The position numbers and the translations under genes were made by a program. A stretch of 63,978 nt of DNA, the filler included, from Ionaspis alba (taxonomy: Eukaryota): NCBI GenBank assembly GCA_964255285.1. It is 19 parts of 19 records of this genome, joined end to end, with 100 filler letters (N's around TTAATTAATTAA, not from the genome) between each part and the next. Parts side by side here need not be neighbours in the genome. Positions count along the whole stretch, not along the records: positions 27,726 to 31,014 come from CAXUUL010001215.1; 18 more parts are not named here. One strand, written 5' to 3'. This document shows, piece after piece, positions 3,421-61,266 of the stretch (positions are counted from its first letter, which is position 1; each line of letters starts with the position of its first letter). A model generated the notes under the pieces. That model saw only the letters and a program-made list of their open reading frames with translations, made no database searches and was not told where the DNA came from.

Positions 3421-3520
3421 NNNNNNNNNNNNNNNNNNNNNNNNNNNNNNNNNNNNNNNNNNNNTTAATTAATTAANNNNNNNNNNNNNNNNNNNNNNNN
3501 NNNNNNNNNNNNNNNNNNNN
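3421..3520. other. Artificial contig spacer N44-TTAATTAATTAA-N44; first of 18. Others start at 6937, 10449, 13920, 17370, 20813, 24223, 27626, 31015, 34397, 37768, 41131, 44478, 47788, 51095, 54392, 57687, 60971
   Basis: Identical 100-nt block with stop codons in all six frames. Intervening segments fall monotonically in length (3416, 3412, 3371 ... 3184 bp). Confidence 0.99.
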
Positions 3521-6909: not shown

Positions 6910-7036
6910 CTACGGCGAAAATCTAGCCATCATAAGNNNNNNNNNNNNNNNNNNNNNNNNNNNNNNNNNNNNNNNNNNNNTTAATTAATTAANNNNNNNN
7001 NNNNNNNNNNNNNNNNNNNNNNNNNNNNNNNNNNNN

Positions 7037-25778: not shown

Positions 25779-25878
25779 NNNNNNNNNNNNNNNNNNNNNN
25801 NNNNNNNNNNNNNNNNNNNNNNNNNNNNNNNNNNNNNNNNNNNNNNNNNNNNNNNNNNNNNNNNNNNNNNNNNNNNNN
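25779..25878. other. Intra-scaffold assembly gap (100 N, no stop linker)
   Basis: The only N-run lacking TTAATTAATTAA. Confidence 0.9.
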
Positions 25879-27473: not shown

Positions 27474-28599
27474 TATGGGCCAAAGAAAGAATGGATGACA
27501 AGACAGATATTAGACAGCAGGAGAGAGAAACCAAAGGTATCAGGAACGGAGATTGCTTCAAGTAAGACCTTGAAGCCAGCAGAGGACTTTACATCTCGGG
27601 CAGAGCGGAAGTGTCCCCGCAAACGNNNNNNNNNNNNNNNNNNNNNNNNNNNNNNNNNNNNNNNNNNNNTTAATTAATTAANNNNNNNNNNNNNNNNNNN
27701 NNNNNNNNNNNNNNNNNNNNNNNNNGAGAAGAAGGAGAAGAAGGCCCGTCTTGCTTGTCCTTAACACTTTGGATATCGTGTCCACTGCTACATATGCTCA
27801 AGTGTGAGGAACTCAAAGAATGGGGACGTGACCTGCGCTTACCAGATTCTTCGAGAGTTTCTCGTGAAGCTTGTTTCGGGCCGTTATCGTCTCTGTGACA
27901 CCACCAGGATCGGGGTGCAGTTACGAAGACTTGAAAGATCCATCGCCCCATCACGAACCAGCAGTGACCTGTATTGGCCGGCATCATAGAATTTCGACGG
28001 GAGCAACCCTCCAGAAACATTGATGCCGGCGAGTGCCTTGTCCACGACGGCGGAGATGAGAAGCAGCGCATAGTGAGCATAAGCATACCATGCTCTCTGT
28101 TGGCTGCTCCATACTTTGGGGTCCCTGATCTCCTTTGACCAACCGTTGTTTGACGGGACAGGAGACTATCATCGTCAGAGCGTCAGAGGAAAGCCGATGT
28201 CCTTAATTCGTGAGCTGCAAAGCGAAGGTGATCAGAAGCAGGTACCTTGTGTCACAGTCTACCCTTGAAGAAGGCTCGCAGCCGGATTCCTATAGGAGTA
28301 GAGTGGTTTGCTCTATCATGAACGGAGACTGTATCGAACTTCCGATCTCCTTGGCCACGCTTGTAACCGCAAGAGATCACTTCAGCCCATGGGCCCTTCT
28401 TTTGCGTCCTCTTTCAAGTTATTGCCATAGAAGAGAATCGTGACAGGCGCCCAGGTGTGACTGGTGCGCGTTTGTCTGGACGTTTGCACGAAGAAGGATG
28501 GAGGTAGCCTGGGACTCTTCTGCAGACCCGATATCTCGCGGTAAGACATGTTGAGGAGGAAATTATGGCGATAAGCGACACTGCATCCATATCGCGCGA

Positions 28600-29600
28600 T
28601 GCTCGTCCTACGCAGAAGGGTTGCAAAAAATAATACTGCAGAGGAACGCGCAGAAGCTGCAGAAGCACTCTAGCTGAACGTTCTGGCGTCACAAACATTT
28701 GCACGTACTTTAAGCTGTGCCACAACCACTTATCGAAAGATCTCCAGGTGCAGACAGATGGATCATTAACCACTAAAAGATTCAATCACAAGTCCAAAGG
28801 GGAAGAAGCATCCCTCCCACCTTTGGCCTTAGGACGACTTCCAGCATTTGCTCTACCCTGCGGCTCAAGATCTTTCCGCGGTATGTGCCTCGCCTCAGCC
28901 ATCGAAGACCTCGCACGTACACTGTACCGGTGACCACTTACGAGCGAGAAAGACCTCGATCATACGAATGCTTTGCGGTGGAAAAAAGGGTCAAAGATAT
29001 CATGGAGCAATTGATGGGCATACCCGAAGCACAGCCCTAGTTGAATGAATGTAAGGAGTTGGAGTTCGAGAACCATCTTAATTCGTCGAGTAAAAGCACG
29101 GAAGAGCACAAAAGATACTGGAGCGACAAGAGAGATCGGGTGTCGGTCAGGCTTGCTTGGTTTACAACGTTGACGGAAGTTGTTCAACTATTGTCTATTC
29201 AAGAATCGGGAAAGAATGTGAACTTCAACGCTGATCGCTTAGTGGCGAGGAATTTGTGAAGGCATTCATTGTCGACCTTCGACGTGAAGGCTATATGTAT
29301 GATTGATTACAGTTGTCAGGGGGATCCGCCATTCCAGTCTATCTGGGAAACATGGGCCTCGAAAGGACGTATTTCCTGCATGTTGGAATCGAGATTATAC
29401 ACATGATGTTTATGGAGGCGGAAATCTATAAGATCCTACATCGTCTGTGCCACCAGAGCAACTGGACCACGAGAAGCAGCGATCGGTGAATGAAATCCGG
29501 CAGCTTGGGGTTCTGCGTAGGGACGACCGACTAGCCAATATGCTGTGGGACGAATCATGATAACAAGTGTTGCTGATTAACTTTGAGAGGTCGATAGATC
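28600..29600 (+). pseudogene. Degenerate, internally deleted Spok-family-like (coiled-coil / nuclease / kinase) gene relic
   Basis: Manual translation across frameshifts gives, in order: AEERAEAAEA; TNICTYFKLCHNHLSKDLQVQTDGSLTTK; SITSPKGKKHPSHLWP*DDF; PLTSEKDL/SYECFAVEKRVKDI...LEFENH; LRREGYMYD*LQLSGGSAIPVYLGNMGLERTYFLHVGIEIIHMMFM; EIRQLGVLRRDDRLANMLWDES**QVLLINFERS. The order matches Spok domain order as I recall it. Confidence 0.75.
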
Positions 29601-29857
29601 AGGCTGTGAAACGACCGAGGGACTCAAGACAAGTGTTACGAGAAGTCTGGCCCATTAAGAAGAGACGCATATATGCGGCAAAAAAGAGACTGAATGTAGA
29701 GCAGTGTGGGGGCTTAGCAATGGTATAATAATTAAAAGATTGCACTCTTTCATCGTCTCGGCAACATCCATTTCAGACCGCATGTCCCAGGTTCGCAAAC
29801 TTGGCATATATGGATACCCATTGCGTGGGTACCGAATTTTCTATTCGTCCGAGGATT

Positions 29858-30914
29858 TCATCTAGATAACGATTCATGTCGACATCGGCACTTATCGCAT
29901 CGAAGCATGGTCTTGCCAGAGCCAACATTCTCGAGATATCCGCCGAATTCTTGCCCGCAGTTTCGACAATGGCTATGATTACGAACGAGCTTGTACGCTT
30001 GATCAAGCTCGTCCTTCACGATTGAGACCTCTTCTTGAAGCAGGTCGATTTTCTTCTTGAGTCGAGAGACGTTTAGACTTTGCTCGTTGTTGACCCTTTC
30101 GAGATCAGCCACTTTCTCCTTCGACACCGTCCATGCAATCGGCTGATAGTCCATAAGAAGGTCGTCTAATGCAGGACATTCCTCGACTTCCTGCCAATTC
30201 TCAATACAAGATCTAAAAATTTGCGCGTTGAGTTCAAGGTCTTGTTCATTGACATGGGTGAGAGCCTCTTTCATCCCGTCGACAAAATTTGCCGCATCAA
30301 AACGTTTCTCCATGAGCTCGGTACATCGCTTGAGGGACTCTTCTTTGAGCTGTTGAACTTGGAGGAACTCTCCAAGGTTGTAGAGCTGGACGTTAAGAAG
30401 CAGCGCAGACCCGTCAAAGGTCCTCGCCGTATAGACATGATCCTCCAGATCCTGACCTACACCTGGGGAATCACAAACAGCATCTTCATTTTCCCGCACT
30501 GTTTCTTGGGTGGAGCTTCCAGCTTCCTGTGCAAAAATGTTGTGGATCCTTTGAGTAGTATTCTCCGGTATCACTAAGGGACCGTCATCGTAGGTACCTG
30601 TATAAAGAAATTCAAGGGCCTTTTCAAATATTTCTGCGTCGGTCTCCTTCAACGAGGCCTGTTTCGCAATGCCTTCCTGTAACCAAGGGTTAGTTGCAGG
30701 AATCCAAGGTCGGACTAGGGTTCACCTCGAAATTAGAGTCGCAAAGAACCTCCAAAAATTTTGACTGAGGGCAGATGATTGATCGATGCAACTTGAATTG
30801 ACGACCTCCGCATTCAATAATGAAGTCGGAATATTTGCCGGTTTCTAGCAACTGCTTGTTCCGTTCACCAAATAGACATATACCACGAATCACACCATTT
30901 TCTGAGATAGACAT
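29858..30914 (-). CDS. BTB/POZ-domain protein with C-terminal coiled coil and CxxC...CxxC motif, spliced
   Basis: GKYSDFIIECGGRQFKLHRSIICPQSKFL...NFE/E; FEKALEFLYTGTY; VQLYNLGEFLQVQQLK; tail HCRNCGQEF...LRCDKCRCRH. Confidence 0.88.
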
Positions 30915-31852
30915 GTTGACAAAGTGTACTGCAAAGCACTTTAAACTTCAGGAGTATCCAAATAGACCCTGGTAATTTGCGAGACGTAACATTCGGAGAA
31001 ATAGACAAGATTGANNNNNNNNNNNNNNNNNNNNNNNNNNNNNNNNNNNNNNNNNNNNTTAATTAATTAANNNNNNNNNNNNNNNNNNNNNNNNNNNNNN
31101 NNNNNNNNNNNNNNTGCCCAATAAGGAGGTAATAGTGCTGATGACGCCGATGATTTGCCTCTAGAGCGGACATGAAGCTAGCGCGATGCAAAACCATATG
31201 GCATATCAACCACCCAAATCCCTACGTCTGGACAATGAGCCAATTACCGGCGGCATCATCGCTGTTGTGGATGCGCCATTGCCTTATTGTCGCCTCACAT
31301 CCCTGCGTCCACGCGACGCTCCACTCTCAAGGCAAGATTTAGGCACTTATCGAACCACTCAGCACTCAGGAGCAATTAGGGACCGAAATCGGAGATTTCC
31401 TCACTTCGAGGCCGAGGGTCGGATTCGCCCATGTATTGGCTGTTAGTAGGACCGTCGCCGCAACCATCCGAAGAACCTTAAGATTTCGAGGCCGTGTGGG
31501 CACGGGCACCACCACTTTGCTGCGAACGGCCGACCATTGGTAGATCAGCCCGTTATTGGCAAGAAAACGTGACTATTGTACTACCGAACTGGCTACCGGC
31601 TTGGTACGTATGTGGAGTTTCCTGGGTTAGACGGACACTTGCACAGAACATCAGTGAGATCGTTCCAGCCCAATCCCAGCCGCCCTGCAGCTGTACGCAT
31701 CCCATATTTATTTGCACACACGCTGACAGGCACACCAGAGCGTGCGAATACTTTTTCGACTACTGTCCGGTAACAGCCAATCTGAATCGCCAGCCTACTC
31801 CCGCGAGCGCTGATTTGGTGGGCGGAGTGCTGCAGGTCAGGAGGGCAGGGGG

Positions 31853-60949: not shown

Positions 60950-61266
60950 GGACAAGGCGTAAAGTTTGTANNNNNNNNNNNNNNNNNNNNNNNNNNNNNN
61001 NNNNNNNNNNNNNNTTAATTAATTAANNNNNNNNNNNNNNNNNNNNNNNNNNNNNNNNNNNNNNNNNNNNAGCACGTATAAACAAGCCCCCAGACCCCGC
61101 AATTGATAGGACCAATAGCCCCTTGGTCAATCGCACGCAATCCAATTGCCCATCTCTCCATTCAATTCTTCTCTCCCTTGTCCCCCAAAGTAACCCCTCT
61201 CCCTCCGGTCCAGATCCTAGCTCAAAGCTTTTCGCTACCACGGAATGAAAGCTGCAGTAGACTCAC

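Follow-up and report, generated by a model that had tools for sequence, protein, structure and literature searches.

Does a stretch of an Ionaspis alba assembly in which no gene is called conceal the remains of a Spok-type spore-killer gene, and what has become of the functional parts of such a gene? The stretch lies in a window of 63,978 nucleotides (the whole DNA analyzed, from GenBank assembly GCA_964255285.1), for which an earlier sequence-only reading had proposed a hidden, dead member of the Spok family. We conclude from sequence comparison, with a probability of about 0.93, that the region is a pseudogene, that is, a decayed and internally deleted SPOK-family gene (SPOK2_N plus kinase), with unrelated genes on either side of it in an ascomycete contig.

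The contig and the broken reading frame

The window contains about 19 contigs, ranging from 3516 down to 3284 nt and separated by N44-TTAATTAATTAA-N44 spacers (3421-3520, 6937-7036, and so on to 60971-61070), and it looks like a length-sorted series of contigs joined by six-frame stop linkers. A single N100 gap is found at 25779-25878. Since the contigs are joined, the real context of the relic is limited to 27726-31014, and housekeeping genes on the other pieces are uninformative on linkage. The features of this contig, in window coordinates, are listed below.

27726..31014, no strand: the relic's own contig, 3289 nt, bounded by N44-TTAATTAATTAA-N44 linkers
27727-28182, minus strand: partial ORF, no Pfam match
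28533..28643, plus strand: possible start and first coiled-coil turns, by eye against P0008; a weak lead, below significance
28644..28669, plus strand: coiled-coil repeat remnant ERAEAAEA, aligned with P0008 residues 21-28 and P0007 residues 64-69
28670..29102, plus strand: N-terminal domain (SPOK domain 1), from frameshift-aware alignments
29103..29178, plus strand: linker and first nuclease motif, from frameshift-aware alignments
29176..29179, plus strand: junction of deletion 1, about 32 aa lost (P0007 249-280), a gap against 8 of 10 references
29179..29241, plus strand: short remnant of the nuclease domain, VVQLLSIQESGKNVNFNADRLVA, from frameshift-aware alignments
29238..29247, plus strand: junction of deletion 2, about 285 aa lost (P0007 303-587), a gap against 8 of 10 references
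29242..29725, plus strand: kinase remnant, from frameshift-aware alignments
29858..30947, minus strand: BTB/POZ-domain gene, an intact long ORF outside the relic (PF00651, E 4.4e-06)

Three-frame translation makes a broken protein readable on the plus strand at 28644-29725, in all three frames. The sequence-only reading had described six collinear plus-strand blocks within 28600-29600 and had seen no gene there in the ORF track. All six blocks were found in their place, in three frames and with stops between them; the location holds, and it is the extent that needs correction, the well-supported relic being slightly longer than the proposed span. The absence of a called gene is likewise real: the longest plus-strand stop-to-stop ORF within 28533-29728 has 99 aa, and with no longer plus-strand ORF anywhere in the region, a gene call is not expected there.

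The region was compared with intact proteins using a protein-to-DNA aligner written for this analysis, which permits frameshifts and long gaps. In the alignment with P0007, a protein of 760 aa that is the closest intact relative, window positions 28650-29725 correspond to residues 64-750, and 229 of 357 codons (64%) are identical. The score is 883, as against 46.4 +/- 5.6 (maximum 56) for 25 shuffled versions of P0007 and 39 for the reverse strand. In tblastn searches with P0001, residues 21-126 and 127-277 match 28676-28960 and 28960-29331, respectively, and residues 501-594 and 596-679 match 29148-29414 and 29411-29665, the linked E-values of these segments being 2.6e-27 and 2.6e-23. Single proteins align in order, which bears out the proposal that the blocks belong to one collinear protein. 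Upstream of 29240, in the N-terminal domain and the nuclease remnant, the identity to P0007 is 65% (126/195), and in the kinase remnant it is 64% (103/162). With P0117 and P0084, which are family members from Sordariomycetes, the relic shares only 29-39% identity.

The BTB gene lies 130 nt downstream of the relic and is convergent with it. Its intact ORF has 287 aa, and for this C-terminal part of the gene no Pfam family was found. A search for repeats and inverted repeats around the relic turned up only the artificial linkers and short matches such as chance produces; terminal repeats were absent. Starships greatly exceed the available DNA in size, the relic's contig being of 3289 nt. On such a chain of contigs, the lack of a DUF3435 captain (none on the relic's contig, nor among 58 ORFs of 139 aa or more in the window) and of a transposase (none among the same 58 ORFs) is therefore uninformative.

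Anatomy of the relic and its lesions

In the text of Vogan 2019 (PMC6660238), SPOK3 and 282 homologs are described as having a coiled coil formed by a variable repeat, followed by domain 1 of unknown function. One repeat-like unit (ERAEAAEA) aligns in the relic; intact relatives have from one to six, this part being variable in length. Further upstream, ISR*DMLRRKL (28533-28575) resembles the MSRRD...LRQEL of P0008, a by-eye match that lies outside the alignments and is too short for significance; if this remnant is real, the start codon has been lost, as the position reads ATC. The N-terminal domain is interrupted by stops at 28830 (TAG), 28931 (TGA), and 29038 (TAG), by frameshifts near 28670, 28776, 28892-28895, and 28960-28963, and by an 11-aa deletion after 28847.

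The PD-(D/E)XK nuclease that follows in SPOK proteins has its catalytic residues within SPOK3 219-240, plus a QxxxY motif, and a Cys cluster, C-x3-C-x13-C-x5-H-x7-H, stands upstream of the kinase (Vogan 2019, PMC6660238, text). In the relic, GQACLVYNVDG replaces the DQACVFRN of the relatives, and the column of the first catalytic Asp, D237 in P0007 and invariant in alignment A2, holds Gly. Deletion 1, of 31-35 aa with eight of the ten reference proteins, takes E256-Y-K258 of the PD-(D/E)XK motif. Deletion 2, of 284-292 aa with eight of the ten, takes QxxxY (309-313), the linker, the Cys cluster (507-541), and the first kinase strands (all in P0007 numbering). With the two most distant references, both from Sordariomycetes, the two deletions fuse into a single gap of 338-371 aa. 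The nuclease core and the Cys cluster had been reported as lost, and lost they are, in two separate deletions instead of one; on the finer map, the stretch of the first Asp survives as GQAC, and the first strands of the kinase are gone as well.

At the junction of deletion 2 (29238-29247), intact relatives have V-A on either side (NADRLVA..., ...FVAKGT). To judge from these residues, the deletion may have arisen by microhomology from the V-A shared at both sides.

The catalytic loop of the kinase remnant, GVLRRDDRLANMLW, retains its Asp (29522-29524) and reads RRD, as against HKD in P0007, and the DFE motif is changed to NFE (29579-29587). The remnant has four stops, at 29304 (TGA), 29429 (TAA), 29558 (TGA), and 29561 (TAA), and frameshifts near 29256 and 29410-29414. 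The whole relic has seven in-frame stops and eight or nine frameshifts; in the alignment with P0007 the frameshifts number nine, and there are three deletions (11, 32, and 285 aa). Across the ten reference proteins, the stops number seven with each of the six closest and six with the other four, and the frameshifts six to nine. With these stops and frameshifts and two large deletions, the copy is a dead one, as had been proposed.

A functional shorter gene or RNA could in principle occupy the region, for example as a spliced transcript or through exaptation for a regulatory role, and short ORFs do exist on both strands; nothing positive speaks for it otherwise. The frame changes, however, are of 1-2 nt and fall within conserved blocks instead of spanning intron-sized gaps, and the antisense ORF of 123 aa has no Pfam match. 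Moreover, the Spok-like genes found in metagenome loci (see below) are single, uninterrupted, intronless ORFs of about 740-860 aa. We regard a functional piece of this kind as very improbable.

The stops, frameshifts, and deletions might instead be sequencing or assembly errors in an intact gene, a concern raised by the strong fragmentation of the assembly (contigs of about 3.3 kb) and by the mixed appearance of the source runs, which yield variant contigs. Yet about 16 disabling lesions fall within 1.1 kb, while clean long ORFs are seen nearby (287 aa) and elsewhere (up to 667 aa), and portions of the relic recur, gap-free, in the contigs of two runs. Those of X2, a second sample of the same study, match 28124-28592 without difference; over 28912-29119, a span that includes two stops and two frameshifts, they show two substitutions and no gaps. 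A contig of X1, probably the source sample, matches 29362-29968 and is gap-free. Since X1 is probably the source and X2 belongs to the same study, this support is not fully independent. The contigs of X1 do not cover 27726-29265, though a fraction of 0.93 of the sequence words occurs in that run, and run X3 yielded no contig; neither result has a bearing on absence or expression. The relic's lesions are not the artefact of one assembly, as seen from the X2 and X1 contigs and the clean adjacent BTB ORF, and a terminal branch five times as long as that of its sister (see below) extends the difference to the level of substitutions. An intact gene disguised by errors is thus extremely improbable.

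In X1, another contig, of 115 nt, covers 29326-29440 with six substitutions and a 1-nt deletion at 29348 (about 94% identity), and variant X1 contigs likewise cover the BTB gene. These variants suggest that the sample is mixed and includes a second strain, haplotype, or copy.

Intact relatives and family assignment

A 160-aa frame-1 fragment of the relic (28777-29259), compared with 262 candidates, matched four proteins with E-values from 3.7e-15 to 1.9e-7, the best match being P0001 (E 3.7e-15). Three of the four are 704-750 aa long and one has 371 aa. A profile built from the three long proteins (A1) identified 248 proteins at E <= 0.001 among 8000 candidates scored. A precomputed hit to the Pfam family PF27653.1 is present on all 121 relatives considered, that is, on the 120 listed of these 248 and on P0004. 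This family is named SPOK2_N, and in a protein-atlas search it is carried by 95-99% of the proteins in the three clusters nearest to P0007; a literature search for PF27653 found no paper. The hosts of the listed relatives include Fonsecaea, Exophiala, Aspergillus, Microsporum canis, Histoplasma, Fusarium, Beauveria, and Colletotrichum. A HMMER search with P0117 of Fusarium solani returned 2626 cluster representatives at E <= 0.001, 806 of them at E <= 1e-30, so the SPOK family is large.

The relatives are ascomycete proteins, typically of 700-760 aa, the length also of the intact P0007, P0011, P0008, and P0010 (from ENA) and P0001-P0006 (from JGI); the relic keeps about 47% of it. Three of them, P0001, P0007, and P0008, have a D...EYK motif in which D and K are 21 residues apart, as in SPOK3 (219-240), a QxxxY motif in the form QTFEY, and C-x3-C-x13-C followed by His, whose spacing varies by about one residue. 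The kinase loop HxD...N is found in P0001 and P0007, with RWD at this place in P0008, and DFE occurs in all three. Of the 216 family proteins that reach 600 aa, 202 retain both the nuclease Lys and the kinase Asp, most commonly at distances of about 425-449 residues, a range that includes SPOK3 (427) and SPOK1 (433, from the residue numbers in Urquhart and Gardiner 2022). Judged against the published description, the SPOK2_N family, the domain order, and the motifs of Podospora Spok1-4 are thus common to the intact relatives of the relic. The tie to the proven Podospora drivers consists of the Pfam name on precomputed hits and of the agreement in motifs and spacing with published text.

No protein among the 216 full-length relatives fits all the published residue numbers of a Podospora protein. 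In P0005, positions 219, 240, and 667 agree and that of QxxxY differs, and we judged the agreement a coincidence.

According to Vogan 2019 (PMC6660238, text), the Spok kinase resembles eukaryotic-like kinases of the Kdo/APH type. A local Pfam set gave the relatives only weak matches to APH (E 3.1e-05) and Kdo (E 0.006-0.009), and a comparison of P0007 with PDB sequences nothing better than E 0.52. The likeness to the Kdo/APH families is one of fold and concerns only the C-terminal domain of the relatives; these families have no SPOK2_N region, nuclease, or Cys cluster.

Could the region then be what is left of an unrelated small kinase-like gene, its N-terminal likeness to Spok being due to chance? 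The kinase fragment alone (29432-29728) retrieved no relative in a word-indexed search (none of 71 candidates at E <= 0.01), nor did it match Pfam: a scan of five single-frame fragments of the relic with a model set that does not include PF27653 had no significant result, the best being DUF7043 (E 0.017). But the same single proteins match both the N-terminal part, significant by itself (E 3.7e-15), and the kinase part, in order. Matches to the relic region at E <= 1e-3 were obtained with 120 of 121 family proteins, and in the enlarged family set 213 of 262 proteins match the region; none of the 262 matches anywhere else in the whole window. This refutes a chance likeness, to which we assign practically no probability. 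The N-terminal similarity, being significant and collinear, supports the view that the relic descends from a SPOK2_N-bearing gene, and the assignment to the Spok family made in the sequence-only reading is upheld by PF27653 on every listed relative and by the SPOK architecture of the intact ones.

Relatives are also encoded in 80 metagenome loci, with identities of 31-42% and 60% in one segment. The relic's contig has no DNA in common with any of the 80, and the relic's neighbors are encoded in none of them. The products of 38 large flanking ORFs in these loci (450 aa or longer) include NACHT-WD40 NLRs, a HeLo protein, a fungal kinase, T5orf172, one DDE transposase, and housekeeping proteins, and DUF3435 was found in none of them. 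Several intact Spok-like genes in the metagenome contigs lie less than 10 kb from NACHT-WD40 NLR, HeLo and T5orf172, Pkinase_fungal, or DDE_1 genes, the loci concerned being L073:1288-3219, L078:730-4367, and L079:1662-5200; L024:836-5796; L021:14179-16614; and L080:2185-3723.

Phylogeny, decay, and the question of drive

A FastTree phylogeny was built from 112 of the 121 listed relatives, those of at least 640 aa. In it, P0001-P0011 form one clade, sister to a clade that holds Fonsecaea proteins, and the Sordariomycete members form a separate clade. Among the matches listed, the nearest named relatives of the relic's clade are proteins of F. multimorphosa and F. erecta (P0018, P0019), members of the Chaetothyriales. 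The relic entered the trees as a read-through with X at each break, made with three different guide proteins, and under all three it clusters with P0007 and P0011 with an SH-like support of 95-96. Its terminal branch is 0.48-0.55, as against 0.09-0.11 for P0007, a length that fits unconstrained evolution after a loss of constraint. The RIP indices of the relic (TpA/ApT 0.66; (CpA+TpG)/(ApC+GpT) 1.26) equal the window average, so there is no RIP signature in it.

In the same phylogeny, P0117, P0119, and P0120, from Fusarium solani, Diaporthe, and Thelonectria, are joined by very short branches (0.04-0.09), their hosts belonging to different orders. This grouping is a tree-versus-species incongruence of a kind already described for the SPOK family.

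In Podospora, one Spok protein both kills, through its nuclease domain, and protects, through its kinase; in SPOK3, K240 is required for killing and D667 of the kinase for resistance (Vogan 2019, PMC6660238, text). SPOK1 with a dead kinase is reported to damage DNA in E. coli and yeast (Urquhart and Gardiner 2022). The parent gene of the relic probably encoded a SPOK-family protein of about 720-760 aa. On the Podospora model, such a protein would act as a single-gene toxin-antidote element, with a nuclease that kills, for which there is evidence of DNA damage, and a kinase that protects the carrier. The relic itself would neither kill nor protect, its frame being broken about 16 times and the nuclease E-x-K, QxxxY, the Cys cluster, and the first kinase strands being deleted; the changes of the first nuclease Asp to Gly and of the kinase DFE to NFE would disable it further.

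By analogy with Podospora, the ancestor was probably active and may have been a driver, though homology by itself is no proof of drive, a limit that the sequence-only reading also set. The Podospora Spok genes are proven drivers, whereas the relic belongs to a different clade, the nearest named neighbors of which are the Fonsecaea proteins. In the text of Vogan 2019 (PMC6660238), only the multi-copy "clade II" homologs are regarded as likely drivers, and many distant or single-copy homologs as unlikely ones. Its supplementary File 6 covers Sordariomycete genomes and Polytolypa only, and of the names searched for in the supplements, Fonsecaea, Z520, PAAG, Paracoccidioides, and Exophiala were not found, Polytolypa alone being present. 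To judge from its position in the tree, the relic's clade differs from "clade II," and it is not known to include a driver.

Another course of events, which we consider unlikely, would make the deletions something other than random decay and would begin with a disarmed, resistance-only allele. Such an allele would have arisen by loss of E-x-K, shielded its carrier from an active driver, and decayed after the driver vanished, and an active relative may still segregate in this species. The 115-nt variant contig of X1, about 94% identical, hints at a second copy or strain.

As a decayed and internally deleted SPOK-family gene, the relic resembles cases already on record. Spok-like genes are reported to be prevalent in Pezizomycotina and pseudogenes to be often among them (Grognet 2014, PMC4022471), and Podospora has a Spok pseudogene of its own, with multiple stop codons as in the relic (Vogan 2019, PMC6660238, text). 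The relic is of the same kind as the Pezizomycotina pseudogenes, a mutated and truncated copy. In Microsporum canis, up to 11 Spok-like copies are reported (Grognet 2014, PMC4022471, text to Fig. 6), and the M. canis protein P0067 is in the retrieved family and collinear with the relic. As such pseudogenes are reported to be frequent, the relic is real but ordinary.

The relic was recognized by reading the sequence alone; the Pfam scan and the word-indexed kinase search both missed it. By itself it raises no new question; an intact paralog, or a presence/absence polymorphism within the species, would raise its importance. It extends a known pattern of gain and loss of Spok-like genes among filamentous ascomycetes, in which pseudogenes stay behind, and it shows that the P0007-like clade was once represented in this lineage.
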